Source of the DNA: a virus
Length of the DNA: 39,316 nt
Virus record (IMG/VR): IMGVR_UViG_3300029868_000026
Strand: one strand, 5' to 3'
The position numbers and the translations under genes are program-made. Below the pieces are notes generated by a model that ran no database searches, was not told where the DNA came from, and saw only the letters and a program-made list of their open reading frames with translations. Position 1 is the first letter of the stretch; each line of letters begins with the position of its first letter. Shown piece by piece: positions 9,848-39,316 of this stretch.

Positions 9848-11230
9848 TTACGCCACCAGTGAGATAGTCGGGCAGTAATTTACGGTTACAGACGGCTTAG
9901 TAATATATGCGGTAATATCTGGTATGCCGTCCGACCCCACATCTACTGAAGTATCAATGTCGACGTAGTACTCATTGTACCCGGTAAGGTCTGCCGCGCC
10001 GTTTTTCCACGTCGAGCCGGTGTCCGCCGTTAACTCTGTTCCGCCCGTCAAAAAATTACTATTTCTAGTACTCAGAAAATTAGATACGTTTCGGGTCGTT
10101 CCGTCGGGATACGTCAACGTGAAGTAAATATCTGAGCCTGTTAGGGTGTCGGTTGATGCCAGGTGAATCCGCAGTATTCCAGTAGTGGTTAGCGTTGCTC
10201 GAAGCGTTGGAAAATCAAACCAAAAAGGGTTAATGACTGAACATAGCGCAGACGTTATGCACTCTAGGCTTGTTTTTGTTCCAGAGTTAAACGGTGTGGA
10301 ATCGTTTCTGTGTACGCCCGAATCGTCTTGATCCATAACAGTACATCCGTTCGATATTACTGTAAATTGGTACTCTGAGTGCGCCGCATTATCCGAACTA
10401 CCAGTAATAACCATGCGCTTATCTGCGGCAGGTAACAGGTTGTCCGTGAAGATAACACCGCTTTTTAGGGCGCAATTCTTTATGCGCATGTCAAGCCCGT
10501 GGTAGCTGTGAGTATCGTTGTAGAGGATTTTGTCAGCATGCGTTAAGTCCACGCCGGTAAAATGCGCCCTCCCGCCCCCACCGCCAAACCCATACCCAAA
10601 AATCCCGTTAATCGACCCGCCCACCGAGTTATAGACTCTGCCACCTGTCATACACAGTGTGGCTCCGCCCTGCACGTTAAGACGCCCGCCAACGTCCTGT
10701 ATGTCTATGTCACTATTAATTAGTTTTAGGATGCACCCGTCTTTAGATGCCAAGCTCATTATGTCGGAATTTCCCGTAAGGATTAGCGTGCATAGTTCGG
10801 CTACTATCGCACTGTTTGTTGTGCCAGAGTTAAAGTTGTCCTTTGGCTGTAGCGTCAAGCCGAACAAGAACAAATCTCCGCGCAGGTAGTAACTCGCGTT
10901 ACTATCACCGCTTAAAATTATCTCAGACGCGCCGGGGCTAGGTGTGTCCGCATTAGAACTGCTAACAGAAATTATAGCCCTTGGGCTGCCCCCGCTTTCC
11001 TCACCATAATACGTTATGCTGCCGCTATCGGTCTTAACATAAGCGTGAGTGTCTGCCAACAATATAATATCGCCCGCCGCGTATGGCGTAGATGGTATGC
11101 TGTAAACGTCTTCTATTTTATTGTAATACGCACTGGCACCCATCGCAGCAAAAGAACCCGTTCTAAGCGTTGTAGAACGCCCCGCGTCTAAGGCCGCCGT
11201 TCCACCTAATAGCACATAAAAAAAATTCAT
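9848..11230 (-). CDS. Hypothetical protein, possibly a beta-helix (tailspike/depolymerase-like) structural protein
   Basis: 460-aa ORF with repetitive short strand-turn segments (LILTGNSDIM, LINSDIDIQDVGG, LCMTGGRVYN, GGGGGRAHFTGVDL, IKNCALKSGVIF). Tightly packed in the tail operon. Confidence 0.6.
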   Translation of the reverse strand: MNFFYVLLGGTAALDAGRSTTLRTGSFAAMGASAYYNKIEDVYSIPSTPYAAGDIILLADTHAYVKTDSGSITYYGEESGGSPRAIISVSSSNADTPSPGASEIILSGDSNASYYLRGDLFLFGLTLQPKDNFNSGTTNSAIVAELCTLILTGNSDIMSLASKDGCILKLINSDIDIQDVGGRLNVQGGATLCMTGGRVYNSVGGSINGIFGYGFGGGGGRAHFTGVDLTHADKILYNDTHSYHGLDMRIKNCALKSGVIFTDNLLPAADKRMVITGSSDNAAHSEYQFTVISNGCTVMDQDDSGVHRNDSTPFNSGTKTSLECITSALCSVINPFWFDFPTLRATLTTTGILRIHLASTDTLTGSDIYFTLTYPDGTTRNVSNFLSTRNSNFLTGGTELTADTGSTWKNGAADLTGYNEYYVDIDTSVDVGSDGIPDITAYITKPSVTVNYCPTISLVA

Positions 11231-12670: not shown

Positions 12671-14464
12671 TTAACCGGCGGCCAATGCTAAATGGTCTGC
12701 CAGCGATACCGCATCAACGTGCTGAGCGTGGATTTCAACTTTTCCTATTCTGGCTCCGCTGTTGTTGTTGCTGGTTGCGTTGGTAATTTGTGATAACAAC
12801 CCACCCGCCGCCACCCGGCTTGTTTTGTTGCTGGTTAGGTTGGGCGGTGCTGGCATGTTAACGTTGCCGCCACCGATAACCCCAAGCTTTTCAAGAACAA
12901 TCGATACACCGGAAGTAAGCAGGCCAAACGGATTTAACATTTTTAACCAGGGTTTGAAATCGATAAACCATTGTTTGATTTTATCGAAATTATCAATCAC
13001 CCATCCCACCGCATCCACTACCGCCAAAAGCGGTGTGTATAGAAAATTTGTAATAAAATTGGATTCAATCATTTTTCGCAAACTGGAAAATTTATTGCCC
13101 ATAAAAGTCATGGCGGTATCCCAGTTTTTATATAACCAAACTGCACCTACTCCCAACGCCACCACGGCGGCTATAATGCCCATCACGGGGGTAAATACCA
13201 TTCCAGCACTAAAGGCCACGGCAATCCATAAACCCTTGAACAGTAAAAGAGTACCGCCCAACATGGTTAAAGCCCCAACCGCTGCAATTAACGCAATCAC
13301 CCCAAGCGTTGCAAAACCAATCACCCTGGTAACGTTGGGAAACATGGTTGACCAGCGCACCAATTTATCGGTGAAATCCGCCACCATGTTCATTAATGGA
13401 TTCAACACCACCATCAATTGTTCACCAATTCTTGTTTTTATCGCGGTGAAACCTGAACTCATCCGCTCCCATGAATTGGTCATTTGTAGCGCCATCAATG
13501 TGGCATTTTCCATGCCCTTAATGTTGCTCAATTCTTCCATCGAATTTTTGAGGTTGGTGGTTTTGCCTGATAACGATAGGATTAATGCAAGCGCCTCTTT
13601 GGAGCCAAACGCTTTATGTATAGCGCCTTTTTCCGCTAGGGTATCCAATGCCCCATATTTGCCGCGAATCTTCGCTAGAACCTCTAGCATCGGCAACAAT
13701 CGCCCATGTGAATCGGTAAACTGTAAACCTAGTGCTTTTTGTGCTTTCCCGGCACCGGCTAAGAAAGCTTTGTATTTAGTTGCGGCCTCTGAACCTGACA
13801 TGCTGGCACCCAATGTGCCCATGATGGCCATTTGGTTGGCCATGGATACACCACTTACTGTTGCCATCTCTCCCAAATTGGAGAATGATTCCGCCATTTT
13901 TGACCCGGTGGTTTTAAATATTTCAACCGCTTTTGCAGTTTGCCCCGCCACCATTTCCACCCAATTGGATTTGCCCATTTTAATGGCCGTTTTCTCGAAA
14001 ACGGAATACATGGTGCCCATATAATCGGTGATGGTGGCAACGTTGGATTTTGTGGCTTTAGCGAGTACGGCACTTGCGTTGGTGAACTTTGCCAGTTGAT
14101 TGCCTTCTAGGCCGCCAATCGCGGATTGTATATCATATGAGGCGCGCGCAAAGGCCGCCGCGTTTTCTCCAAATTTAATTGAAGAACGCAACGCGGTGTT
14201 TTGAAGGTTTTTTAATACGGTTTCAGTGACTCCAAGGCTTCTAACTTCGCCCAGTGCAGACATCATATCTTTTATGGGGTTTAGCAACCCCCCAAGCAAT
14301 CGACCGGCACCGGCTATTCCTGCAATGCCTATGCCTAACTTCAAAAAACCCGAGCTGGTATGTCTTGTCATGCGGTCAACGTTGCGCATAATTTTACCGA
14401 CCGGGCCGGAAACTTTATCGATAAGGGACACGCTAAATAATAATTTTTCAAGTTTTGATATCAT
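12671..14464 (-). CDS. Tail tape measure protein
   Basis: 597 aa, Ala/Gly/Met-rich helical protein with a hydrophobic C-terminal segment. It sits directly after the frameshifted chaperone pair, and its start overlaps the frameshift-product stop (taATG). Confidence 0.9.
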   Translation of the reverse strand: MISKLEKLLFSVSLIDKVSGPVGKIMRNVDRMTRHTSSGFLKLGIGIAGIAGAGRLLGGLLNPIKDMMSALGEVRSLGVTETVLKNLQNTALRSSIKFGENAAAFARASYDIQSAIGGLEGNQLAKFTNASAVLAKATKSNVATITDYMGTMYSVFEKTAIKMGKSNWVEMVAGQTAKAVEIFKTTGSKMAESFSNLGEMATVSGVSMANQMAIMGTLGASMSGSEAATKYKAFLAGAGKAQKALGLQFTDSHGRLLPMLEVLAKIRGKYGALDTLAEKGAIHKAFGSKEALALILSLSGKTTNLKNSMEELSNIKGMENATLMALQMTNSWERMSSGFTAIKTRIGEQLMVVLNPLMNMVADFTDKLVRWSTMFPNVTRVIGFATLGVIALIAAVGALTMLGGTLLLFKGLWIAVAFSAGMVFTPVMGIIAAVVALGVGAVWLYKNWDTAMTFMGNKFSSLRKMIESNFITNFLYTPLLAVVDAVGWVIDNFDKIKQWFIDFKPWLKMLNPFGLLTSGVSIVLEKLGVIGGGNVNMPAPPNLTSNKTSRVAAGGLLSQITNATSNNNSGARIGKVEIHAQHVDAVSLADHLALAAG

Positions 14465-14963
14465 TACCCTGTCCCATTAAACGCATTACTAATGCCGTTG
14501 CCCAATGAAAGTTCAAAGCGGTTCCAGTATTCGTTTTCTAAATACAACGCCTTGCCTAATTCATCATCATCTATCGGTTGGCCCGGAAACCATTTCGCGG
14601 CTAACAGTCTTAAACGGTCGTAACCGTTGGCCGCGATTTGTTCCGCTAGGGCTTCCGCTTTTTTACAACAATGTCCAAATCTGGCACATATTCTTCAACC
14701 ACAAGTTGAACAATTTCCATTTCAGCGCCCGGTGTGTTTCGCATCAAATGAACTAACTGAGTCCGTTTGTCTGTTTCCACGGTGGCGGTTAAGAAATTAA
14801 ACGCGGGGCCAACCTTTTGCGCGCCCACCTTGTTAACAAAACCATTGTATTCTTCACGGGTAACATTGAATGTGTAATCAATGCCACTAATGCATAATAC
14901 AATTGCCTGTTTGTTTTTATCTTCCGTTTCTGTTCTTTCTTCTGTTTCTTTGTTCTTCTCCAT
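14464..14963 (-). CDS. Tail assembly chaperone -1 frameshift product (gpGT / gpE+E'-like)
   Basis: A -1 slip at 14664..14658 opens a 63-codon stop-free extension (AEALAEQIAANGYDRLRLLAAKWFPGQ...NAFNGTG*). It ends at 14464, overlapping the tape measure ATG. Confidence 0.8.
14646..14963 (-). CDS. Tail assembly chaperone (gpG/gpE-like), zero-frame product
   Basis: 105-aa acidic ORF upstream of the tape measure, ending ...VVKKRKP* across an A_AAA_AAG slippery site. Confidence 0.85.
   Translation of the reverse strand: MEKNKETEERTETEDKNKQAIVLCISGIDYTFNVTREEYNGFVNKVGAQKVGPAFNFLTATVETDKRTQLVHLMRNTPGAEMEIVQLVVEEYVPDLDIVVKKRKP
14658..14664 (-). promoter_or_regulatory. Programmed -1 ribosomal frameshift heptamer A_AAA_AAG
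   Basis: The minus strand reads gtA AAA AAG cgg in the zero frame. This is the same heptamer as the E. coli dnaX slippery site, and it sits at the chaperone position where tailed phages conserve a programmed frameshift. Confidence 0.8.
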
Positions 14964-15243
14964 TTTCCCGCTCCGCGTGCTGTTGTTGTAAAAGCTTATA
15001 TTTAGCTTTTAGTGTTGTGAAATCTTCGCGGCCTTGTTCCCGCAAATCCCGCTTTCGCTTAAAATACAAATCAGTCCAATAGGTGGCAAAGATTGACGTA
15101 ATACCAAAAATGGTTAGCCAATCGCTAAGTTCCCAACCTGCAACAATCCCAATTAATGATGTGATATAAGCTATTAACCCGGTGATGTTGTCTTGCATTT
15201 TAAATTCCCAGTTTTCATGGATTATTTTCAATTGCCCGATCAC
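14917..15243 (-). CDS. Putative class II holin / small membrane lysis protein
   Basis: Two hydrophobic helices (ITGLIAYITSLIGIVAGW, WLTIFGITSIFATYW) followed by a highly charged tail. It lies in the lysis cassette. The start is ambiguous (GTG at 15243 or ATG at 15198). Confidence 0.55.
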   Translation of the reverse strand: MIGQLKIIHENWEFKMQDNITGLIAYITSLIGIVAGWELSDWLTIFGITSIFATYWTDLYFKRKRDLREQGREDFTTLKAKYKLLQQQHAERENGEEQRNRRKNRNGR

Positions 15244-15785
15244 TTCACGGGATTAAAATTAAATGCATCTTTCTCTTTGCTGCCCATGGATGAACCAAAG
15301 AAAAAGCTAATTATCTGTAACCGCTCTTGCCATAACGACGAAATACTACCGCCAATGAGATTGCCAAGCGCCACCGCTATAATGGGGTTTGTGATAAAGT
15401 GCGCAACCGCAAGGTTTGCGATAAGCAGCAACAACACCGCCCACAAGTTCCATTTTATTATCCGCTCTGCGATCTTATCGGCCATTGTGTTTTTCTTGGC
15501 ATAAAGTTCACGCGCCCCGGCAACATCAGCAAGGTATAATTTTTTTAATTCATGTTCTTGTTTTACTATTTCTTGTTTAACTTGATTGCTAAAACTCTTG
15601 TTTGCCACTACTAGTTCAACGGCTCTTTGTGGGTCATTTTCACCGGTAACAATTTGCGCAATTTGGGTAATCTTTTGCGCGGTTTGTTCACCGAAGTTAT
15701 CCCCGATTTTTTCACTTATCCACGAGCCAAGCCCGGTGTGTTTAATTACAGTACTTGCCAGTGTGATTGCTGCTAACACTCCCAT
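15240..15785 (-). CDS. Putative holin-like membrane protein (coiled-coil segment plus C-terminal TM helices)
   Basis: 181 aa, placed right after the endolysin-like gene (13-nt overlap). TM segments WNLWAVLLLLIANLAVAHFI and IIAVALGNLIGGSI. The architecture resembles 3-TM GTA-type holins; this is a judgement from memory only. Confidence 0.45.
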   Translation of the reverse strand: MGVLAAITLASTVIKHTGLGSWISEKIGDNFGEQTAQKITQIAQIVTGENDPQRAVELVVANKSFSNQVKQEIVKQEHELKKLYLADVAGARELYAKKNTMADKIAERIIKWNLWAVLLLLIANLAVAHFITNPIIAVALGNLIGGSISSLWQERLQIISFFFGSSMGSKEKDAFNFNPVK

Positions 15786-16363
15786 AAATCCGCCTTATTT
15801 ATTAATGTGTAAGTGAAACTGTTACCCGTTAACGATGCCGCTTTGTAACACAGCGCCATGAAAATATTAAAATCCAACGGGTCTGCAAATACTTGGCACC
15901 CGGCGCTCCATTTATTAACTTGGATAGATTTGCGTTTCTCATTCGCCCGGTGGCAATTGATGCCAAACCACCCGTGGTATTCTTCACCGGCTGCGGTTGG
16001 TATGTTGTCGGCGTCTTTGTCGCGGTAAACGGTAATCATCCGCCGTTGCACAAGTGCGTCATAACCTTTATGTTGGCCAATTTTCCACAATGATGGATAT
16101 TGACCCGGTTTAACAATGGCGGTGCCTTCCTCAACCATCGGATTTTCCAAATAGTATTTTCCAGGCACGGTGGTAATAGGAAAACAAATTGCGTTTTGCT
16201 CACCCTTCACCAGATACAACACATACAACGAATCAACAAACCGGTTGCTTGCGGTGTCATGGCTACGGACACCCACAATATTTAGGTTGTATTCGCCTTT
16301 GTTAAAAAACTTGAAACCCTTTTGGCGGAAAACAGATTGCATTCGTTTATACATTGTGCTCAT
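15773..16363 (-). CDS. Putative endolysin with a YkuD-like (L,D-peptidase fold) His...Ser-x-Gly-Cys motif
   Basis: GINCHRANEKRKSIQVNKWSAGCQV has the spacing H-x14-S-x-G-C typical of L,D-transpeptidase-fold enzymes. It is adjacent to holin-like genes. Start chosen at the internal ATG 16363 (15 nt after the upstream stop, RBS-like ggggg). Confidence 0.5.
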   Translation of the reverse strand: MSTMYKRMQSVFRQKGFKFFNKGEYNLNIVGVRSHDTASNRFVDSLYVLYLVKGEQNAICFPITTVPGKYYLENPMVEEGTAIVKPGQYPSLWKIGQHKGYDALVQRRMITVYRDKDADNIPTAAGEEYHGWFGINCHRANEKRKSIQVNKWSAGCQVFADPLDFNIFMALCYKAASLTGNSFTYTLINKADLWEC

Positions 16364-24819: not shown

Positions 24820-25884
24820 ATGAAAGCAATAACACGCCGCGCATTCTCCAACAATCACACCGAAAGTGGCATGGTGTCAAAACGCCAACAACAAGGCGCA
24901 AAAGGCCGGGGGCCATTGGCGTTTTCTTTTGGTGATCCTGAACCTGTATTGGGTAACAACATCACCAATTATTTGGGGGTTTTTGTTGATACTGGTGGGG
25001 AATTTTACGTGCCACCGGTTTCCATGTCGGGGCTTGCTGACATCATCAGCGCCAACGCGCACCATGAATCTGCTTTGCATTTTAAGCGCAACCAAGTGTT
25101 AAAATGGTATATCGATAACACTATTTTAACGCGCAAAGAATTGGCAAAAGTGGTGTTTGATCGGTTTGTTTTTGGTAATTGTTATTTGCAAAAAATCTAT
25201 AACCGTTTTGATATGGTCATTGGATTGAAACACTTGCCCGCGTTATATATGCGCAAAATGAAAAAAAACGATAACCAATATTGCAAACTGCAAAACGGTG
25301 GCCGCCCCCCTATTCCGTTCAAAGTGGGCGAAGTAATCCACCTAAAGGATTATTGTGTTAAGCAACAAATTTATGGTATTCCTGAATATTTGGGCGGGGT
25401 TCAATCCATTATGTTAAACGAATCCGCCACCCTGTTCCGGCGCAAATACTATGATAATGGTGCCCACATGGGGTATATATTTTATACGGCGGATGCTGAT
25501 TTTGATGAAGAGGATGAAAAAGCCCTAAAAGAACAGATTGCACAAAGTAAAGGCGCGGGTAATTTCCGGTCTATGTTTTTGAACATTCCAGGGGGTAAAC
25601 CGGATTCCGTTAAAATTATACCGGTGGGTGATATTGCCACCAAAGATGAATTTGAGAGAATCAAAAACACCACCCGTTCCGATATCATCAGTATTCACCG
25701 CATCAATCCGGCATTGGCTGGGGTTATGTCTGAGGCAAGCGGCGGATTTGGTGACATCGAAAAAATAAGCCGAATTCAATATGAAAATGAAACCGTCCCG
25801 GCACAATTCATATTTAAGGAAGTAAACCAATATTTACGCACCCAAGATGCCATTGGTTTCACAATTCCAGAATTTGCCGACTAA
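24820..25884 (+). CDS. Q: Portal protein (P2 gpQ family)
   Basis: LAFSFGDPEPVL...YVPPVSMSGLADIISANAHHESALHFKRNQVL parallels P2 gpQ (EAFTFGEPVPVL...YEPPVSFTGLAKSLRAAVHHSSPIYVKRNIL). Confidence 0.92.
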   Translation: MKAITRRAFSNNHTESGMVSKRQQQGAKGRGPLAFSFGDPEPVLGNNITNYLGVFVDTGGEFYVPPVSMSGLADIISANAHHESALHFKRNQVLKWYIDNTILTRKELAKVVFDRFVFGNCYLQKIYNRFDMVIGLKHLPALYMRKMKKNDNQYCKLQNGGRPPIPFKVGEVIHLKDYCVKQQIYGIPEYLGGVQSIMLNESATLFRRKYYDNGAHMGYIFYTADADFDEEDEKALKEQIAQSKGAGNFRSMFLNIPGGKPDSVKIIPVGDIATKDEFERIKNTTRSDIISIHRINPALAGVMSEASGGFGDIEKISRIQYENETVPAQFIFKEVNQYLRTQDAIGFTIPEFAD

Positions 25885-25920: not shown

Positions 25921-25958
25921 TAACGCGAAAATTCACAATAGTGCGAATTTTCGCGTTA
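25921..25958. promoter_or_regulatory. Perfect 14-bp inverted repeat (taacgcgaaaattc N10 gaattttcgcgtta) just downstream of the portal gene, in the region where P2-like phages carry cos
   Basis: Read directly. No T tract follows it, so it is not a classical terminator. Confidence 0.5.
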
Positions 25959-25999
25959 GGTGCTATTATTCCCTCAACCAAAAATAACGGGGGTTGTTT

Positions 26000-26266
26000 A
26001 TGCGGTGTAAATGTCGATTTTGTGGAAGTGTGGCGCGGATTACGTCAAGCAATGAAATATCATTAGAAGTTACCCACCTATATTGCCAATGCACAAACCC
26101 AAAGTGTAACGCGGTAACGGTTCGGGATAATTCCTATTCTCACTGTTTGCGCCCCCCTATCGATGATATTGATACCCTGTTTTTAGACCGGTTCAATTCC
26201 ATGGGAAAGGAGCAACAACAACAATTATTGCGTCAAATGACCGGCAACAATACCCCCCTCAACTAG
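26000..26266 (+). CDS. ogr: Ogr/Delta-family zinc-finger late transcription activator
   Basis: MRCKCRFCG...(22 residues)...C-TNPK-C reproduces the Ogr C-x2-C-x22-C-x4-C spacing. There is an RBS-like aacggggg upstream. Confidence 0.85.
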   Translation: MRCKCRFCGSVARITSSNEISLEVTHLYCQCTNPKCNAVTVRDNSYSHCLRPPIDDIDTLFLDRFNSMGKEQQQQLLRQMTGNNTPLN

Positions 26267-26596
26267 ACCCAATTGTTTATCCATATCATCCAGAATCAAA
26301 AATAACCCTGCCAAATCACTGGCATTCAATTGCAACACATCATCCGTTTGGCGTTGGGTGATCACGGTTTGTAAAAAACTGATTTTCTTGCGTACTGCGT
26401 TAATACTTTTCATTACTACATCCCAAAAATGTACGGCGTCCCCGCCGAATTCCAATATTCTAATGTCCGTTTTATTACTTTTTCTTGGTTTTTTCTTGTT
26501 TGTTTCTTGTCTATCAATGATCGCTTGGTTGGTGGTCGATTCAGTGTAGGAGACAATGCAAAAAATAAAAGTCATTATAAAAGACCAAACCAGCAA
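26225..26596 (-). CDS. Hypothetical small protein divergent from the XRE gene (start uncertain; a 62-aa version starts at MKSINAVRKK)
   Basis: This is the only sizeable ORF in the 438-bp ogr-XRE gap. Its 3' end overlaps the ogr 3' end by 42 bp. Coding status is unproven. Confidence 0.35.
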   Translation of the reverse strand: MLVWSFIMTFIFCIVSYTESTTNQAIIDRQETNKKKPRKSNKTDIRILEFGGDAVHFWDVVMKSINAVRKKISFLQTVITQRQTDDVLQLNASDLAGLFLILDDMDKQLGLVEGGIVAGHLTQ

Positions 26597-26703
26597 GAAA
26601 TTGCCGGTTTTCCTAATGGCCGCCTTTACTCTGCAAATTTTTGCCGATACGGTTACTAACTAACAGTTTTCAACACATCTTGTTTCAACTTGTTCTGGGG
26701 TTT

Positions 26704-27117
26704 ATGCAATTACCTACCGATTTTGACAAGACGGATTTTGTAAAGAAACTAAAGCAAGCACGGAAAAAACAGCAGCTCACAAAAAAACAATTAGCGCAGC
26801 TAATAAATGTTAGCGAGCGCACCTATTCAAGCTATGAAAATATCAAAGATAACCGATTGCCGCGCATCGATACGGCGCGTTTAATGTCAACCATCTTGCA
26901 CATCAGTTTGGAACAATTAATTTTAAAACAGGACAATATCACCTTGGATGATACAGAAAAGGAATTACAACGCTCACTTGAAAAACGTATAGCCAGTGAT
27001 CCCATGTTTGGCTTATACCTGCGGTGGGTGGTGCATTACAGTGATGCGCGGATAAAAAATTTATTGGATGCGCAATTGCTGGATATCACCGAAGGATCAA
27101 CCCCATCGACCAAGTGA
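26704..27117 (+). CDS. XRE-family helix-turn-helix transcriptional regulator
   Basis: FVKKLKQARKKQQLTKKQLAQLINVSERTYSSYENIKDNRLPRIDTARLMSTILHISLEQL is a classical HTH_3/XRE pattern. ATG at 26704. Confidence 0.85.
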   Translation: MQLPTDFDKTDFVKKLKQARKKQQLTKKQLAQLINVSERTYSSYENIKDNRLPRIDTARLMSTILHISLEQLILKQDNITLDDTEKELQRSLEKRIASDPMFGLYLRWVVHYSDARIKNLLDAQLLDITEGSTPSTK

Positions 27118-27495
27118 GCTGTTTCGTATCGCGTCGATGGCTCGGGTGATGGCCTCGATGTTGCTGGTGGGATTTAGTTGTTTGATGATGTAAGAATGCA
27201 CGCCCAAATCAAATGCGGCATCGATGGTGGTTTGGTGGTTGTGGTGGGTGTAGATAACAACGGGGCAATAATCGGCGGATGATATGCGGTGTAAATCCTT
27301 AATCAGTTCAAGACCGGTGCCATCCGTGCTGATATCAAAAATGACCGCATCCAGAGTGTCAACACCCTTGATGCAGTCAAGTAAACTACCGACATCATCA
27401 AAAAAAATAACGCTGTCGTTTTCTATCATGCTGGAAAAAATGGCCTGCAAAAAAACCTTGTCATGTACATTATTTTCTAAAATGTAAATATCCAT
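27097..27495 (-). CDS. Stand-alone CheY-like response-regulator receiver (REC) domain protein
   Basis: Aligns by eye to CheY: YILENN (D12/D13 position reads E-N), AVIFDISTDGTGLELIKDL (D57), PVVIYT (T87), SYIIKQ (K109). RBS aaggaa lies upstream of ATG 27495. Confidence 0.8.
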   Translation of the reverse strand: MDIYILENNVHDKVFLQAIFSSMIENDSVIFFDDVGSLLDCIKGVDTLDAVIFDISTDGTGLELIKDLHRISSADYCPVVIYTHHNHQTTIDAAFDLGVHSYIIKQLNPTSNIEAITRAIDAIRNSSLGRWG

Positions 27496-27523
27496 GACGT
27501 TCCTTGTGTTTGGGGCTTTGTGC

Positions 27524-27754
27524 TTACCCCACAGCATAGCCCCCTACCACTAAACACACAAACACCCAACCTAAGGTGCCAACCATCAACGCCAATCCTA
27601 GTGCCATGTACCACAATAATTTTGTCGCTATCCGGTAATAGAAATAAAAGTAAACGATACCTAACAACAAGTTGTCCCAATAAACGAAAAATATCCAATC
27701 CAACCACACCACAAAAAATGGCAATTTTTCAATATCAATATAATCAATTAACAT
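27524..27754 (-). CDS. Small two-TM membrane protein
   Basis: 76 aa, aromatic-rich with hydrophobic helices. Its start overlaps the upstream stop by 7 nt. Confidence 0.6.
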   Translation of the reverse strand: MLIDYIDIEKLPFFVVWLDWIFFVYWDNLLLGIVYFYFYYRIATKLLWYMALGLALMVGTLGWVFVCLVVGGYAVG

Positions 27755-28134
27755 GATGTTTTTCCCACTAGTGTTAGGTGTGGTGTTTGTCGGTGTGGTC
27801 TTTTAGGTTGTTTGGCTTGCATTGGTTGCTCACGTCGAATCACCGCCCACACATGGTAGGGAGCGCATTGATTACCAAATTCTAAATAGGTTTTGTTAGT
27901 TCCCCCTAAGTATCGATAAGCCTTTGCGGTGGAAGGTTTTGGGCAATCGTAAACACTCTTGTTAATTTCGATAGAAATCTTCTCCGCTGCATCATCAACA
28001 GTGTGAAAATATTCACCCATAAAACCCGCTAAATTATCCACCCGCCCGGTGATAACCTTGCCAGTGCCTTGATGATATAACACATCGTGCATGAATAATT
28101 TCCAGGATGCGGTTTTTTTAAATTCGCTATTCAT
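27748..28134 (-). CDS. Hypothetical protein
   Basis: 128-aa ORF with an ATGA overlap to the upstream 439-aa gene. Confidence 0.65.
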   Translation of the reverse strand: MNSEFKKTASWKLFMHDVLYHQGTGKVITGRVDNLAGFMGEYFHTVDDAAEKISIEINKSVYDCPKPSTAKAYRYLGGTNKTYLEFGNQCAPYHVWAVIRREQPMQAKQPKRPHRQTPHLTLVGKTSC

Positions 28135-29450
28135 GCGATCACCTGTTGACGTAATAAATAAAATTTACCTTTTTTAACCACATGGTTCTCATCAATCAAC
28201 TGTTCTAATAAATGCCTTAAATGTTCATAGCGTAATTTTAAGTTAGGCCAATCACTACAAATGGGTTTTATGGAAAGTTTATCGCCATAGCACCCAGCCA
28301 ACATCTTTTCAACCACAGGCCGCAAGTTCAAACCGTTAATTGGGCTTATATATTTTTGGTCAAATTCTTTCATGTCAATACCTTGTTGCGGGGTTAATAA
28401 TGGGTTGTCGATGGCGGTGGGTTTATCAACATAACCCACTAATTCGTTGCCATTGTAGACCGGTTCACGTTCCACAATGTTGCCCTTGGTATCGAATAAC
28501 ATGGGTTTATCCGCAAGTTTTACCGGTTCATCAAACGAGCTGGTTTGGTCGGTTGCTTTTGATATTTTTATAGCCGCGCCTTTTTCCCTTAATCTGGCCA
28601 ATCCCGCCCAATCAATAAAACTTTTTTCATTTGCTGGCGGTTTGCATCCGCCATACATTTTTTCAATTTCACGGTCAAAATGACGTATCAATTTATCATT
28701 TTCTGTTTCGTTTTCTGTTTCGTCTTTTGGTTTTGGTGGTTTGATGTCGGCCAATAGCGGGGTATTTCCTTGCACCAATAACAACGCATAAATGCCACAC
28801 ACATCAATCAATATCGCCACCGCGATAAATGACCAGTGCCGCACCGTTCCCATATCTATACCCGTGACATTGCTTATCACTAAAAACGCCGCCGAGGTGT
28901 TAACGCTGGAAACTGCTGGGGTGTTTCGTGCGTTCAATAACAGTCGCTCTTTTTCCGCCCGTAATTCACTGAGGGGTTTTAAGTGAATAGCGGCGTTTTT
29001 TCTAAAGTTGTTATCCGCATCCCCCTCTGCCACCGTGTTAATCGTGTTCATTTGTCTATCGATTGATTCCAGGCTTTGTTTTAATGCTTTGTGTTCAAAG
29101 CTTTCGTTTGTTTGCCGTGTTGAAAATGTGGCGCTGGCGGATTCAAAAAAACCAACGCTGGCACAAATCGACACTGTCAACAAAACACACCCCAATAAAA
29201 TGGTAACGAAACTGGCCGCCCGTTTCTTGTAACCGTACTGACAATACAACGCCACCCCAACCGGAAAAAATGCAAATTTGCATAACTCCAAGCTAGTGGC
29301 AAACACACCCGCTAACACTTGCCCAACCGGGGTGCTTTGCTCCAACACAAACAGCGCCACCGAACATACCAAACTACCACCGCACGCCAACAACGCGGCC
29401 AAACAAATAACGCCTCTGTATAACTTATTAATCACCATGATTTTATTCAT
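28131..29450 (-). CDS. Multi-pass membrane protein with a central coiled coil and a soluble C-terminal domain (possible winged-helix end)
   Basis: 439 aa. It has three N-terminal TM helices, a coiled-coil segment (FEHKALKQSLESIDRQMNTIN...LSELRAEKERLLL), another TM (WSFIAVAILIDVCGIYALLLV), then about 200 aa soluble. Confidence 0.7.
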   Translation of the reverse strand: MNKIMVINKLYRGVICLAALLACGGSLVCSVALFVLEQSTPVGQVLAGVFATSLELCKFAFFPVGVALYCQYGYKKRAASFVTILLGCVLLTVSICASVGFFESASATFSTRQTNESFEHKALKQSLESIDRQMNTINTVAEGDADNNFRKNAAIHLKPLSELRAEKERLLLNARNTPAVSSVNTSAAFLVISNVTGIDMGTVRHWSFIAVAILIDVCGIYALLLVQGNTPLLADIKPPKPKDETENETENDKLIRHFDREIEKMYGGCKPPANEKSFIDWAGLARLREKGAAIKISKATDQTSSFDEPVKLADKPMLFDTKGNIVEREPVYNGNELVGYVDKPTAIDNPLLTPQQGIDMKEFDQKYISPINGLNLRPVVEKMLAGCYGDKLSIKPICSDWPNLKLRYEHLRHLLEQLIDENHVVKKGKFYLLRQQVIA

Positions 29451-29933: not shown

Positions 29934-30236
29934 TTAATGCATAAGTCTATTATTCGTGGGGTTATCAAAATATTTTACCTCGCTTATATCTAACAATGAG
30001 AACACAACAAAACCCGCTTGTTGCTGGTAGTTGGTGACAAAACCAATAACGGCGCAAACAAAACGCCCGGTATAGCGGTGTAAATGTTCATCCACCGGTT
30101 CCACCTCTAACAACTGTATATAATCCCCGGTTATATAATCTCTATCGTTGCGGCGGATTTCAAAATTCTTTTTTCCATTAACCACTTCTTGAAAATACGG
30201 TTTCTCTGTTTTTAGTAGCTGAACATAAAACATCAT
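29934..30236 (-). CDS. ASCH-like DUF3850 family protein
   Basis: KPYFQEVVNGKKNFEIRRNDRDYITGDYIQLLEV...YTGRF matches the DUF3850 pattern (yF..v..G.KtfEiRkNDRdf.vGD.l.L.E...yTGr). Confidence 0.75.
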   Translation of the reverse strand: MMFYVQLLKTEKPYFQEVVNGKKNFEIRRNDRDYITGDYIQLLEVEPVDEHLHRYTGRFVCAVIGFVTNYQQQAGFVVFSLLDISEVKYFDNPTNNRLMH

Positions 30237-31480: not shown

Positions 31481-34171
31481 TTAAACCGCCGAAAATAGCC
31501 AACAATTAATGGATGTCTGCGTAAGGCAAGACCGGTATTTTTTCAATCCAATAAAGGGGTAACGCTTGGAGTCCTTCAACATCGAACGCAGCACATGCAA
31601 CGGCGCGATTTTTTGGTGTTTCTCCACACACGCTTGTTGAAACTCGTTTAATGAAATGGCAACCAAGCCTTTTTCTTTAGAGTGGTTATACCGTGGCTGT
31701 TTAATGACTTCCTTGCTGCCATCGGGTTTATGCACCTCAATCACCCCGCCGTTCAAATAAATGAACGCTTCCCAAAATTCATCAATCACCGGGTGATCGC
31801 TTGCCAATCGGCCTTGTCGATCCAAGGCGCGTTCGTGCATGTGGTCATATAACGGGTTTAGCTGTTTATCATCCAATTGAGGAAACAACACTTTTAATGC
31901 CGTGGTGCTTGCCATCACTTGTGCATGAAAATTGGTGATGCGATCGGATGTCAAACCGCCGCGTTGTCTTAGCTCATCAACATGTTTTGGATAGGCATCA
32001 AACAGGGCTTTTAAATAGGCTTTCTCATTGGCTAGCACTAACCGCAAATAACCGCCCAACTGTTTTGCCTTGAGTTGGGTAAAACGTTTGGCAATGCCTT
32101 TGTTTTCTTGTTTCTTATGGGCGGTGGTGCAATGAAAATGCACGATGCGCGATAACATCGGCGGGCTGGCTTGTACCGTGGCGTTTTGGGTGATGACAAT
32201 GGCACCCCTAAAAATCAAATCCGCCGAATCCAAACCGTTGTTTTTTACCCCTCTCGATGAAATCACCCCGTTTAAATCGGTACACTTTTTGTAAACATCC
32301 CAGTTCACCTGGTTTGGGGTGCGGGCTGATCTGCCATCACCATCCACCGATTCCCTATCCGATTCCAAAAATACCACGGGTAAATTACTGGCTTGTGCCA
32401 AGCCTCGATCTTTACCGGATGCAGTGCCGGATAATAAGTCGGTGCCCTCCCAATCATCGCGGCCCAACATTTTCCACAGGGTTCTAATGAGGGTGGATTT
32501 TCCCGCCTCTGGATCACCGGTTAATTCTGCAAACGGCATTTGGCCCAATTCGGTTTTTATTTGGTGGGTGAATAAGGTGGATGTCCAAAACCCCAGCATG
32601 CCCAACCCGTTTAAATGAAACACCTTGATAAAATCATTTAGCAACCCGGTATCGAATTCATCGCCGTAAATATAGTGGGCAGATTTTAAAATGGTTTTAA
32701 CCTGAACATCCGGCGCTGAAATATAGCCGTGGTCATTCACTAAAATTTCTTTTTCGTTTTTAAAACCAAATTCATTAAACACATAGGTTTCGGTCACTTG
32801 ATCATAACCAATGAAAGGAATCGCCCGTACATAATCCATTTTGCGATCAAACCACTTACCGCGAAGGGTGCGCAAATCACCAGCCGAACCTTCAAAGCGT
32901 CCACCGGGGGTTTTGTTTAATAATGCATTGTTAAAGGATCGCGGGTCACTGGGGGCGGTGGATTCTAACGCCGCTAAAACCGATTGATCAGAATAGGCCA
33001 TATCAATATGAAAAAAATACTTTTGGCCCTCTTCTTGTTCCGGGTTTTTCTCGATGTATAAAAAGCGGGGTACACAGTTGGAAATACTTTCGGTTGAGAC
33101 ATGACTTTTAAACACGTCAAAATCCCGGCCATACTTAAATTCTAAACCATCTTTTTCCAACGCCTTATCCATCGCGCCTTTGTTAACGGTAAAACGCCAC
33201 AGTTGGTTGCCGCATTCCTCTAACATGTAGGTTTTCTTTTTCCAGCCAAACAATTCATAGGCCATTTTTTTCATACTGTCGGCCATGAATACCCTACCGC
33301 GCCAAATGCATTGTTTAATAAACTTTTCGTTCAATTGGTCAACCCGAAAAATGTCATCCCAATCTGCACTGCTACCGCGCCCAGTAATTGCCACCTCAAA
33401 TTTCTGTTCCATGTCTTGCAGTTTTTCGGCGTAACCTTTGACATGTTGTAGCGGTTTGGGTTCGTCGTCATAGGCCAACACCCAAGTGATATCATCATCC
33501 TTGTGTTGCTCGATCAAATCCCAAGGAAAGTTGCCACAGGCCATAGCGGAAACGGCTTTTTTCTTCGCATGTAAAAATGCGATCGCATGAAAAATTCCCT
33601 CAGTGATAAACACCGTATCGCCCTTTTTAATGACCTGATTTTTCGGTTGCCAACATTTGTTGCCGTATTGAATACCAAATTTAAAATTGGATTTTTTCCC
33701 GGCGTCTTTGCTGGCGGTTTTATCAATGACTTTTTCCCAAAACCACAGCCCATCACCGAACATATCAAAGCGCACCGTATCCACAAATTTCTTGGTGCCC
33801 TTGATCGTCATTTTGCCTTGTGAATACAAACCGTTGATGTGGATGGCTTGAAACTTGCGGTTTTGGGTGAGATAGGCGCGGGCTGTTATATCGGGGTCTT
33901 TTTCGGTGGCTGGAAAACGCTTTGAAAATTCCTCGAATATTTCAGGATATCGTGCGCGCACCGATTCTGTGTAACAACATTTGGTTTCGTTGTTACAACG
34001 CAGCACACCGGGTTTATCGTGTCCAATCCATAAATTGGGTGTGTTGCAATCTGGGCACTTGCCCCGGTAAATACCGCCCACCAACTTTAGTTTTAACGTG
34101 TGATCACCCAACAAGGTTTGCCGGATTTCATCATCCAATGACAAATCAATCATTACGCGTTCCCCGTGCAA
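31481..34171 (-). CDS. Replication protein: zinc-finger + TOPRIM primase + P-loop helicase (P4 alpha-like primase-helicase)
   Basis: CPDCNTPNLW...LRCNNETKC (Zn), VFITEGIFHAIA...AYDDE (TOPRIM-like E and DxD), LTGDPEAGKSTLIRTL (Walker A), PVVFLESD (Walker B-like). An alternative start at ATG 34153 overlaps the upstream stop (taATG). Confidence 0.8.
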   Translation of the reverse strand: MHGERVMIDLSLDDEIRQTLLGDHTLKLKLVGGIYRGKCPDCNTPNLWIGHDKPGVLRCNNETKCCYTESVRARYPEIFEEFSKRFPATEKDPDITARAYLTQNRKFQAIHINGLYSQGKMTIKGTKKFVDTVRFDMFGDGLWFWEKVIDKTASKDAGKKSNFKFGIQYGNKCWQPKNQVIKKGDTVFITEGIFHAIAFLHAKKKAVSAMACGNFPWDLIEQHKDDDITWVLAYDDEPKPLQHVKGYAEKLQDMEQKFEVAITGRGSSADWDDIFRVDQLNEKFIKQCIWRGRVFMADSMKKMAYELFGWKKKTYMLEECGNQLWRFTVNKGAMDKALEKDGLEFKYGRDFDVFKSHVSTESISNCVPRFLYIEKNPEQEEGQKYFFHIDMAYSDQSVLAALESTAPSDPRSFNNALLNKTPGGRFEGSAGDLRTLRGKWFDRKMDYVRAIPFIGYDQVTETYVFNEFGFKNEKEILVNDHGYISAPDVQVKTILKSAHYIYGDEFDTGLLNDFIKVFHLNGLGMLGFWTSTLFTHQIKTELGQMPFAELTGDPEAGKSTLIRTLWKMLGRDDWEGTDLLSGTASGKDRGLAQASNLPVVFLESDRESVDGDGRSARTPNQVNWDVYKKCTDLNGVISSRGVKNNGLDSADLIFRGAIVITQNATVQASPPMLSRIVHFHCTTAHKKQENKGIAKRFTQLKAKQLGGYLRLVLANEKAYLKALFDAYPKHVDELRQRGGLTSDRITNFHAQVMASTTALKVLFPQLDDKQLNPLYDHMHERALDRQGRLASDHPVIDEFWEAFIYLNGGVIEVHKPDGSKEVIKQPRYNHSKEKGLVAISLNEFQQACVEKHQKIAPLHVLRSMLKDSKRYPFIGLKKYRSCLTQTSINCWLFSAV

Positions 34172-34506
34172 ACCTGTTGTGCTTTAACGATCAACGCTTC
34201 TAGTTCGGCCTTAATCGCTGCGGGGTGGTTGGTGGTGGGGTTTAGTTTTAAGGCTTTGGCTCTGGCATCGGCGGCGGCGGCCAACACCTTATCGGCGTTG
34301 TTTAAATGCGGGTTGAGTTTAATCACATAGTTAGTGATGGCGCTTGAATTAAACAACACCCGCAAACCGCCGTTGCTAATAGGGATGGGGCCACCGCCAT
34401 CCTTGCGCAATTTCTCAAAGCTGGATTTGCTCATATTCAGCTTGGCGGCGGTTTGTTCAATGGTATAGATGGGGTCATTTTCTATATCAAATGCGGGTTT
34501 ATTCAT
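34153..34506 (-). CDS. Cox/Cro-position HTH protein (excisionase/AlpA-like helix-turn-helix)
   Basis: YTIEQTAAKLNMSKSSFEKLRKDGGGPIPISNGGLRVLFNSSAITNYV fits the HTH_17/AlpA pattern. It is the first gene of the early operon, divergent from the repressor. ATG at 34506 has an AGGTG RBS. Confidence 0.7.
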   Translation of the reverse strand: MNKPAFDIENDPIYTIEQTAAKLNMSKSSFEKLRKDGGGPIPISNGGLRVLFNSSAITNYVIKLNPHLNNADKVLAAAADARAKALKLNPTTNHPAAIKAELEALIVKAQQVCTGNA

Positions 34507-34610
34507 GTTCAACACCTATTTTTGTAGTTTTTGTAATTAAAATTTACCAGTTTATGGAAATCTCGCCCCATTTGGGCGATACTGTCTTTTAGTGGCCGTA
34601 AATCAACGTA

Positions 34611-34663: not shown

Positions 34664-34693
34664 TTGGAATATAGGCGTGAATGTGAGTATTAT
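34664..34693 (+). promoter_or_regulatory. Candidate repressor promoter (TTGGAA-N18-TATTAT)
   Basis: The hexamers were read directly, about 50 nt upstream of the CI-like ATG, which has a GGGAG RBS. Confidence 0.45.
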
Positions 34694-34696
34694 CAA
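34668..34696 (-). promoter_or_regulatory. Candidate early promoter (TTGATA-N17-TATATT), back-to-back and interdigitated with the repressor promoter
   Basis: Reverse complement of 34668-34696. Its -10 overlaps the -35 of the plus-strand promoter and vice versa. Confidence 0.45.
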
Positions 34697-38710: not shown

Positions 38711-39316
38711 CTAGGGGTCAGTAGAAGGCATCAGCGTTTTAAGCTTGGTTTGTAAAGTGGTGGCGTTGGTTGCTGTGGTTACAAAACCAACGGTTTGAAC
38801 CACGGCTGTCGTTGTTCCTGCTAGCCCGGCATGGGTGTGGCTGTGGGTTGATAATGCGGTTGCCAAATCATTTACTAGCGCGAGCAAATCAGAGAACAAC
38901 GCCAACACATCATTGGTTTCATCCCCCATTGTTATCGCGGTGGATTTTAGTTCCAGTGTTGCCGCCTCGATCTTTTTCAATTGGGTTATGGTCTCGACAT
39001 CATCACCCGCCACCGTTGTTTTCTTGTCACGGCAAACCACTTGGTTTAAATCACTGCCAGTGGTTAAGTTAAGGTTATCAACCGCCGATAAGTTAGCAGC
39101 GCCACCGCTCACCAATTTGAGCGCGCCCATTGCCTCAATAAGCTTTACGCCTGCAACCAATTCAATCGAATGTTCATCCACCTTTTGTGTGCTGTTGTTA
39201 TAGGTTTCAACATTATCATCCGCATCAATGTTTCTAATCCGTGATGTGTCGGTGATCGCGCCATGTGTTTCACGGCTCCAATCACCGCCGCCATTCACCT
39301 TTTGATTAACGCCGTT
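38711..39316 (-). CDS. V: Baseplate central spike (gpV-like), C-terminal part; the ORF is open at the right window edge and is the continuation of 479..1
   Basis: The C-terminal LSTHSHTHAGLAG resembles the P2 gpV apex motif LHTHKHPGD (His-x-His metal site). The upstream beta-helix-like segment is repetitive. Confidence 0.8.
   Translation of the reverse strand, partial: NGVNQKVNGGGDWSRETHGAITDTSRIRNIDADDNVETYNNSTQKVDEHSIELVAGVKLIEAMGALKLVSGGAANLSAVDNLNLTTGSDLNQVVCRDKKTTVAGDDVETITQLKKIEAATLELKSTAITMGDETNDVLALFSDLLALVNDLATALSTHSHTHAGLAGTTTAVVQTVGFVTTATNATTLQTKLKTLMPSTDP
39198..39316. repeat. Terminal overlap copy B (identical to 1-119)
   Basis: Same 119-nt string as 1-119. It lies inside an ORF, so it is a circular-contig overlap rather than a biological terminal repeat. 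Confidence 0.97.

Follow-up and report, generated by a model that had tools for sequence, protein, structure and literature searches.

The locus described here raises the question of whether four tightly packed genes of a temperate phage make up one system or several. They lie on the minus strand of IMG/VR virus record IMGVR_UViG_3300029868_000026, which was analysed over its whole stretch of 39,316 nucleotides (the window from here on), and code in the order of reading for a polytopic membrane protein of 439 amino acids (aa), for proteins of 128 and 76 aa and for a stand-alone receiver (REC) protein, all within a block of 2.35 kb (27097-29450). The original prediction for this DNA had described them as a single coupled accessory cassette in the place that tin and old occupy in phage P2. 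The four open reading frames (ORFs) are where they had been placed, and the junctions could be read in the sequence as described: an ATGA stop/start overlap between the first two genes, a 7-nt overlap (27748-27754, ATGTTAA) between the second and the third, and a 28-nt gap containing AAGGAA before the ATG of the receiver gene (27495). In all four ORFs the codon usage, scored against the confident genes of the phage, is better in frame than in both shifted frames, and their GC content is unremarkable. The accessory character of the genes and their location in a hotspot of variable content were borne out by the analysis, the single cassette was not. Since the membrane gene, the 128-aa and 76-aa genes and the receiver gene have different neighbours, distribution and partners, the comparison of loci indicates that the block is a set of three separately inherited accessory modules and not one unit.

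The membrane gene recurs in many phages without the two genes that follow it here. Homologues were found in related loci (numbered L006, L009, L013-L017 and L023-L028 in this work) with no homologue of the 128-aa or 76-aa gene beside them, and the next gene after the membrane gene is a different one in every relative, even where the membrane protein is 75% identical to that of the window. Among the loci that carry the membrane gene a homologue of the receiver was found only in L009/L010, where it travels with a convergent gene for an XRE-family regulator; in the window this partner lies outside the limits drawn for the cassette. No homologue of the 128-aa, 76-aa or receiver genes, nor of a 123-aa ORF found between them and ogr, was present in a further set of 80 IMG/VR loci seeded on the replication protein of the phage. 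All four genes of the block are dispensable for this type of phage, in agreement with the view that none of them is needed for a recognisable phage function. That no defence system could be named for them also held: PADLOC-DB 2.0, Pfam, PHROGs and NCBIfam gave no match for the 439-aa, 128-aa and 76-aa proteins, and the receiver matched PADLOC-DB models at chance level only (E>0.01).

By profile comparison, the 439-aa protein is a member of a widespread family of temperate-phage proteins that has no name in Pfam and no function in PHROGs. Word-index searches were too insensitive to delimit this family, recovering four close homologues with the protein itself and eight matches with an alignment of 76 sequences, and an exhaustive profile search was needed. 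The latter yielded 366 cluster representatives at E<=1e-3, of which 127 reached E<=1e-10; most family members are 300-350 aa long. In 50,697 genomes of cultured phages, searched at the DNA and at the protein level, no match was obtained for the region, for the 439-aa protein, for the family consensus or for two distant members of the family. Seven structural matches at E<=1e-3 were found in BFVD, all of them uncharacterised phage proteins of similar size. In one locus (L034, 2086-3099) the family gene is split into two ORFs of 157 and 143 aa, by either a frameshift that makes it a pseudogene or a sequencing error.

The multi-transmembrane (TM) nature proposed for the 439-aa protein was confirmed by hydropathy and by an AlphaFold model, both giving four long TM helices plus a helical hairpin. 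The model built on the alignment of 76 sequences had a mean pLDDT (predicted local distance difference test) of 82.7, the one from an alignment of four sequences only 52, which made it unusable. Across the family about 230 N-terminal residues are conserved, followed by a linker that varies in length and sequence and by about 65 conserved C-terminal residues (see Table 1 for the corresponding limits in the window). The N-terminal membrane domain was modelled as helices 9-37, 41-71, 74-116, 118-146, 150-176 and 200-227 with pLDDT >90, the hairpin sitting between the third and the fourth membrane helices. Several polar or charged residues within the membrane are close to invariant in 144 representatives, namely K58 (conserved in 123), S94 (142), S/T98 (142) and D/E/H216 (143), and R150 of the hairpin is present in 105. 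A membrane core with such buried polar residues probably does more than anchor the protein. Neither Foldseek nor sequence profiles found a relative of this domain among solved structures, the PDB matches being generic long-helix proteins at E>0.2. The N-terminus, the TM2-TM3 loop and the segment after TM4 carry positive residues in the window protein and in the family consensus alike, and from this distribution (the positive-inside rule) we infer that both termini are probably cytoplasmic and the hairpin probably periplasmic.

The linker is absent or replaced in homologues and its pLDDT is mostly below 60; at the nucleotide level, 28414-28737 has no similarity to the 75%-identical relative. 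A 12-nt tandem repeat (28699-28734) that encodes ETENETEN was noticed within it. The C-terminal domain was modelled as a winged helix and resembles the DNA-binding domains of GntR regulators. Foldseek aligned it with PhnF (3f8m) at a probability of 0.95 and a root-mean-square deviation of 2.7 A over 60 residues, and a profile made from 40 family C-termini matched the YvoA DNA-binding domain at E=1.2e-5, PhnF at 7e-5 and the gamma domain of FtsK at 0.011. Relatives gave weak Pfam matches to GntR, HTH_45, DeoR and FtsK_gamma, those to GntR in only 4 of 76 relatives (best E=0.0013), and the 439-aa protein itself reaches no Pfam threshold, the GntR gathering score included. The longer members of the family end likewise in a winged helix. 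The 439-aa protein can accordingly be described as a membrane-tethered protein with a predicted DNA-binding domain.

Several known proteins share parts of this architecture. The likeness to the GntR family (YvoA/NagR, PhnF, FadR) is found in the C-terminal 65 residues by profile and by fold and includes the PsvR and G-R-G-Y motifs. However, GntR regulators have this domain at the N-terminus, joined to a soluble effector domain, whereas the 439-aa protein has it at the C-terminus, tethered to a membrane domain of several helices. The order of parts resembles that of FtsK, in which a polytopic N-terminal membrane domain (four helices in the 439-aa protein) is likewise connected through a long variable linker with a winged helix at the C-terminus; Pfam FtsK_gamma was matched by one family member at 9e-5, and profile comparisons with FtsK gamma structures gave E=0.004-0.011. 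Unlike FtsK and SpoIIIE, the 439-aa protein has no RecA-type translocase motor by Pfam or in the model, where the low-confidence linker stands in that place; the membrane domains are unrelated, and the similarity to gamma is weaker than that to GntR. Direct fusion of a DNA-binding domain to a membrane-embedded domain, through which a membrane or periplasmic cue could control DNA binding, is known from ToxR, CadC and BcrR. In these the DNA-binding domain is N-terminal and of OmpR or XRE type, in contrast to the C-terminal GntR-like domain found here, and Pfam, Foldseek and profile searches detected no homology to them. Finally, p16.7 of phage phi29 has in common with the 439-aa protein a membrane anchor, a helical or coiled region, a C-terminal DNA-binding domain (predicted in our case) and a place among the early genes, and by this analogy the 439-aa protein could provide a point at which viral DNA is anchored to the membrane. 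The two differ in that p16.7 has a single TM helix and the 439-aa protein four, with conserved buried polar residues, and in the types of host and phage. Homology between them was not found, as the PDB profile and Foldseek searches returned no p16.7 entry and the C-terminal profile matched only GntR and FtsK-gamma types.

In the P2-like loci with the family gene (the window, L009, the Microbulbifer prophage L013 with the gene at 9938-11110, L023, L024, L025 and L028) this gene comes one or two small genes after the Toprim-type replication gene and is followed by a variable stretch, ogr, the portal gene and the terminase. Other arrangements exist: in L016 and L017 the family gene heads an operon immediately upstream of a DEAD/SNF2 helicase and VRR_NUC genes, and in L015 and L026 it ends the early operon, adjoining the integrase. 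From the uniform synteny of the P2-like loci the gene was first concluded to belong to the conserved backbone. Loci found with the 439-aa protein as query, however, cannot show universality, hence the second set seeded on the replication protein, and the conclusion was dropped because 72 of these 80 loci lack a family member and only 8 have one. Clustering by replication protein placed the family gene in none of the 56 loci of a large cluster, probably phi3-like, in 5 of 20 of other deep lineages and in 6 of 6, the window included, of the nearest clade of the window. It is present in L009 but not in the sister loci L092 and L096, is missing from phage phi3, and many of the loci without it have no polytopic membrane ORF whatever in the interval. 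The identity among family members follows that among replication proteins only loosely (Spearman 0.40), with clear outliers such as the pair of L013 and L074, which have 40% identity in the replication protein and 51% in the family member. This low presence, the patchy lineages and the loose tracking indicate that the family gene is a recurrent, clade-enriched accessory early gene and not a core gene.

The end of the membrane gene deserves attention as the point at which the downstream gene is exchanged. At equivalent sites the gene ends with ...GTGATCnCATGA in the window (28131-28145), L018, L009 and L034, and with GTGTGATCAATGA in L006, and the ATG of the junction starts a different, non-homologous ORF in each lineage. 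In L018, the source of the 75% identical membrane protein, nucleotide similarity with the window ends exactly at 28131, in the stop codon, and another ORF begins. As the same gene end is followed by an unrelated ORF in each lineage, the alignments indicate that the junction behaves as a swap point, giving translational coupling to the incoming gene, and the conserved gene end together with ATGA may be a site of recombination or of coupling. When the small ORFs next to the membrane gene in the different lineages were compared with one another as candidate homologues, they proved not to be homologous. In the window this place is taken by the soluble 128-aa protein and the almost entirely hydrophobic 76-aa protein, in which at least two hydrophobic segments were found, as had been proposed. 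Both are ORFans present only in identical copies of the window phage: related loci contain no homologue of either, a metagenome scan none of the 128-aa protein, and the latter had no match in PDB. Their codon-usage scores are weakly positive (0.09 and 0.10 bits per codon, respectively).

The receiver assigned to the last gene is well supported. Its score of 36 bits passes the gathering cut-off of Pfam Response_reg (PF00072, 30.2), PDB receiver domains match it down to E=2e-5, and D54, T83, Y102 and K105 align with D57, T87, Y106 and K109 of CheY and are conserved in the L009 homologue. As in CheY-like single-domain regulators, the receiver domain stands alone with its phospho-acceptor Asp and the Thr, Tyr and Lys switch residues. 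It differs from them in being phage-encoded, very divergent and paired with an XRE gene, and in having Asn as the second acidic residue in the most natural register. In this register, shared with L009, the acidic pair reads E7-N8 against E-D in L009, provided that the L009 ORF starts upstream of its called ATG; a global alignment with CheY puts D12 there instead. The L009 ORF (13516-13546) does seem to begin upstream of that ATG: the in-frame upstream codons encode IKVYFVED, which corresponds to the missing first strand and acidic pair, and are preceded by AGGGGG, the only plausible start being ATT. The L009/L010 protein, with 26% identity, is the only relative found; a word-index search of 5.8 billion proteins returned the receiver itself only, and IMG/VR had no further relatives of the receiver or of the XRE regulator. 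The scan of 20 window ORFs revealed no kinase, and a literature search on phage-encoded stand-alone receivers gave nothing relevant.

The XRE regulator (Pfam HTH_3, 38.7 bits; the best NCBIfam match, RstR-like, was below cut-off) is 34% identical to an HTH_3 gene of L009 that has the same convergent overlap with the receiver gene. There a 151-aa gene, an N6_N4 methylase gene and an HTH_31 gene stand between the membrane gene and the pair, and the receiver gene, divergent from the last of these, has its own upstream region of 205 nt. Because L009 keeps the convergent overlapping pair away from the membrane gene, the comparison indicates that the receiver belongs with the XRE gene as an inherited pair. 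The 123-aa ORF, whose product begins with a hydrophobic stretch, points away from the XRE gene and had no family match in Pfam, PHROGs, PADLOC or NCBIfam; the ORF at the equivalent position in L009 was considered as its homologue and rejected, having no significant similarity to it.

All of these genes occupy an interval that varies among relatives between conserved flanks, which agrees with the original prediction. The order of replication gene, block, ogr and portal gene is the same in relatives, where the stretch from the family gene to ogr contains 1.9-7.6 kb of unrelated genes. L013, a prophage of Microbulbifer sp. 2304DJ12-6, carries there a Drt4-type defence reverse transcriptase (14244-15857, PADLOC 653 bits), after which comes a 447-aa ORF without match. 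Other cargo includes a YafO toxin in L024, a SUKH-1 immunity protein in L025, an HNH nuclease in L023, the methylase and HTH_31 genes of L009 and a glyoxalase in L014. One cargo gene is common to two distant lineages, L009 (11596-12051, 151 aa) and L013 (11367-11762, 131 aa), with E ~1e-15, which shows an exchange of cargo between these phages. L014 (5990-17629) comes from the same Microbulbifer genome as L013 and has a replication protein 94% identical to that of L013. Its membrane gene and ogr are present and RHS-repeat genes come after ogr in place of portal and terminase. This element is perhaps a prophage in decay or similar to a satellite.

The content of the interval indicates that it is a cargo hotspot of a kind already known, the counterpart of the gpA-gpQ defence hotspot of P2-like phages, which in P2 itself holds tin and old (Rousset et al. 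2022, PMC9122126; PMC13586616). The two intervals share their place between replication and portal genes, at the cos-proximal end, and a content that differs greatly from one relative to another, with Drt4 as a known defence gene and a toxin among it. There are also differences: the replication gene of the window is of the Toprim primase type and not gpA, ogr is within the interval, beside the portal gene, and the occupants in the window match no known system. Moreover, the window genes are apparently read from the early lytic operon and not from promoters of their own active in the prophage, whereas tin and old are expressed in the P2 lysogen.

The surrounding genes are those of a P2-like (Peduoviridae) temperate phage, with P2-type capsid, GPO scaffold, terminase, portal, Ogr/Delta, an S24 CI-type repressor, an integrase and a Cox-like helix-turn-helix protein. 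Metagenome contigs 99.97-100% identical to the window wrap round its ends (1-252 and 39198-39316), so that the window is apparently complete as a phage genome of ~39.2 kb, circularly permuted and with a short terminal overlap. The 896-aa replication protein itself had no Pfam or NCBIfam match at E<=1e-3, Toprim matches being seen in its relatives, and its homologues in the 80 loci are 33-47% identical. By this protein the closest cultured relatives are the Pseudomonas phages phi3 (Peduoviridae, Phitrevirus; 39% identity), whose counterpart is annotated as DNA primase, and phiCTX (30%). In 68 of the 80 loci the ogr homologue adjoins the portal gene. One source labels the proteins as from a Flavobacteriales metagenome-assembled genome, which looks like a binning error, the relatives being Microbulbifer and Pseudomonas-type P2-like phages.

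As regards expression, the caveat that no separate promoter precedes the block was upheld. A scan for sigma-70-like consensus sequences predicted none directly upstream of 29450, the best site on the minus strand being ahead of the Cox-like HTH_17 gene (34153-34515), and the four genes appear to be the tail of the early lytic operon, which would end there. No Rfam family and no tRNA were found. Two successive convergent 3' overlaps follow, between ogr and the 123-aa ORF (26225-26266, 42 nt) and between the XRE and receiver genes (27097-27117, 21 nt). The consensus scan predicted no terminator between the genes of either pair, and therefore transcriptional interference is possible at both. Between portal and ogr, a near-perfect hairpin of 17 bp with a T-rich run was found (25921-25958); the scan calls it terminator-like on the minus strand and its stem is nearly palindromic. 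It may mark the end of the terminase-portal transcript and may also lie close to the cos site. The coordinates of all the features are collected in Table 1.

Table 1 Features of the block and its surroundings in the 39,316-nucleotide window
Feature	Position	Strand	Remarks
Portal gene	24820-25884		
ogr/delta late activator	25994-26266	+	Pfam Ogr_Delta; other conserved border of the interval
123-aa ORF, hydrophobic N-terminus	26225-26596	-	Divergent from XRE gene, overlaps 3' end of ogr; last occupant of the interval
XRE-family HTH regulator, 137 aa from ATG at 26704	26641-27117	+	Convergent with receiver gene, 21-nt 3' overlap
Stand-alone receiver (REC) protein, 132 aa	27097-27495	-	From ATG after ribosome-binding site; longest ORF runs to 27537
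76-aa small hydrophobic ORFan	27524-27754	-	Overlaps 128-aa gene by 7 nt
128-aa soluble ORFan	27748-28134	-	Coupled by ATGA overlap to membrane gene
ATGA stop/start junction	28131-28134	-	Point where the downstream gene appears to be swapped
439-aa polytopic membrane protein with predicted C-terminal winged helix	28131-29450	-	
Predicted GntR-like winged helix-turn-helix, aa 371-439	28134-28340	-	pLDDT ~90-96
Variable linker, aa 229-370	28341-28766	-	Low confidence
N-terminal membrane domain, aa 1-228	28767-29450	-	TM1-3, helical hairpin loop of ~100 aa, TM4
ASCH/DUF3850 protein, PHROG label 'RNA-binding protein'	29934-30236		Early operon, just upstream of the block
Replication protein, 896 aa, Toprim primase type	31481-34171	-	Conserved border of the variable interval
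Best promoter-like site of the early operon	34668-34696	-	TTGATA-17-TATATT, 10/12 matches; match to sigma-70 consensus only

The explanation that we favour, and hold to be reasonably probable, is that the block is the tail of the early operon in a variable interval, made up of three independent modules, one of them a membrane-tethered DNA-binding protein of 439 aa. In this protein a cytoplasmic GntR-like winged helix would be attached, through a flexible linker that varies in length, to a conserved four-helix core with buried Lys, Ser and acidic residues and a hairpin of ~100 aa, probably periplasmic, and early in lytic growth the whole would hold or read DNA at the inner membrane. The genes for the 128-aa and 76-aa proteins would be lineage-specific cargo plugged in at ATGA and translated by coupling to the membrane gene. 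The receiver and the convergent XRE regulator would form a small regulatory pair, the receiver being probably phosphorylated by a host kinase. As for the role of the 439-aa protein, that of an optional organiser, by which phage DNA or the replisome would be anchored to the membrane, similar to p16.7 in concept only, is suggested tentatively and placed first because the gene is found in early or replication-module contexts in four unrelated genome layouts. Action as a membrane-bound one-component regulator, placed second, is rather doubtful, and so, to the same degree, is exclusion of incoming DNA, placed third. It is a similarly speculative idea that the protein represents a class of phage one-component membrane proteins not described before, encoded by an optional early gene that is spread over many temperate phages and has an ATGA plug-in point for new cargo, and that it would convert a cue from the envelope, for example the entry of the DNA of another phage or the state of the membrane, into DNA capture or gene control.

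A number of points weigh against this explanation. The 439-aa protein has no characterised homologue, its roles being deduced from architecture and context, and the positive-inside rule is the single basis of its topology. The near-invariant polar residues within the membrane suggest more than anchoring, which weakens the idea of a simple tether. Most phages with the same replication protein lack the gene, so that any role in replication is optional, and in L015 and L026 it is not beside replication genes but at the integrase end of the early operon. A repeat search found no iterons, repeated candidate binding sites or other notable repeats near the block. In this particular phage the three upstream genes could still be linked in function, in view of their tight coupling. 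As to the regulatory pair, the first acidic pair of the receiver is E-N and not D-D or E-D, and because of this the receiver may not be phosphorylated.

A first alternative takes the four genes as a single new system for defence against phages or for exclusion, in which the large membrane protein would be the sensor, the 128-aa protein its soluble partner and the 76-aa protein a small effector in the membrane, next to the receiver. Their tight packing, with the two overlaps and the short gap bearing a ribosome-binding site, would fit this, as would a hotspot that holds Drt4, toxin and immunity genes in relatives, and later published work found unknown genes of P2-like hotspots to be often defensive in tests. 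We nevertheless consider it very unlikely, since the four do not occur together outside this phage, the neighbours of the membrane gene differ in every lineage, the conserved partner of the receiver is the XRE gene and not the genes upstream, PADLOC gives no match and no promoter is predicted that would serve expression in the prophage. A smaller module is easier to accommodate, although still unlikely: the 128-aa and 76-aa proteins, alone or with the 123-aa ORF, might form a new exclusion or abortive-infection module in which the soluble protein controls a small membrane-disrupting effector. They sit at the swap position of a proven cargo hotspot, the 76-aa protein is hydrophobic over almost its whole length, and published predictions take ~15-32% of the unknown proteins of P2 hotspots to be antiviral. 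Against this, they have no homologues, they match no defence model, their expression is coupled to the early lytic operon, and host-takeover or anti-defence genes are equally possible. That these two ORFs are not genes at all but chance ORFs in a spacer is about as improbable as the four-gene system. Their lack of homologues in the databases searched and their weak codon scores could be read in that way, but their reading frame clearly beats both shifted frames, their starts are placed for translational coupling, they fill the space without gaps, and relatives also have a coupled ORF at this position.

The two remaining alternatives concern the outer genes of the block. The receiver and the XRE regulator might be a phage switch that taps a two-component kinase of the host, apart from the membrane protein, a suggestion compatible with the three-module explanation and possible, if somewhat doubtful. 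The same convergent overlapping layout persists in two lineages whose receivers and regulators are only 26% and 34% identical, the four residues D54, T83, Y102 and K105 are canonical, and the L009 receiver gene has an upstream region of its own; on the other hand, only two lineages have the pair, the ORFs scanned include no kinase, no operator or promoter was identified, and the second acidic residue is Asn in the window copy. The converse of an accessory role, in which the 439-aa protein would belong to the core of all related phages and have a fixed task in replication or membrane anchoring, is highly improbable. It would explain the fixed place after the replication gene in the P2-like loci retrieved with the 439-aa protein and the presence in every member of the nearest clade, but the first pattern is an artefact of ascertainment, and the loci seeded on the replication protein largely refute the idea of a core gene. 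Many of the loci lacking the gene have no polytopic membrane ORF in the interval, the cultured relative phi3 is without it, and there are signs of exchange between lineages.

The hotspot is thus of an already known kind, a four-gene defence system is unlikely, and the parts worth following are the membrane-tethered winged-helix family and the plug-in junction. With this analysis the P2 defence hotspot is traced into a distant, marine-type branch of the Peduoviridae whose replication gene is a different one, and where Drt4, toxin and immunity genes are among its cargo. The conserved ATGA junction suggests a way in which cargo may be inserted and expressed without a promoter or ribosome-binding site of its own. 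The 439-aa family is the more useful result, comprising at least 366 clusters, with a confident model, near-invariant charged and polar residues within the membrane and a predicted DNA-binding tail. A membrane protein that would touch DNA and be made early by many temperate phages offers a concrete target for experiments, with a possible bearing on the positioning of phage DNA, the sensing of the envelope or the exclusion of rivals.

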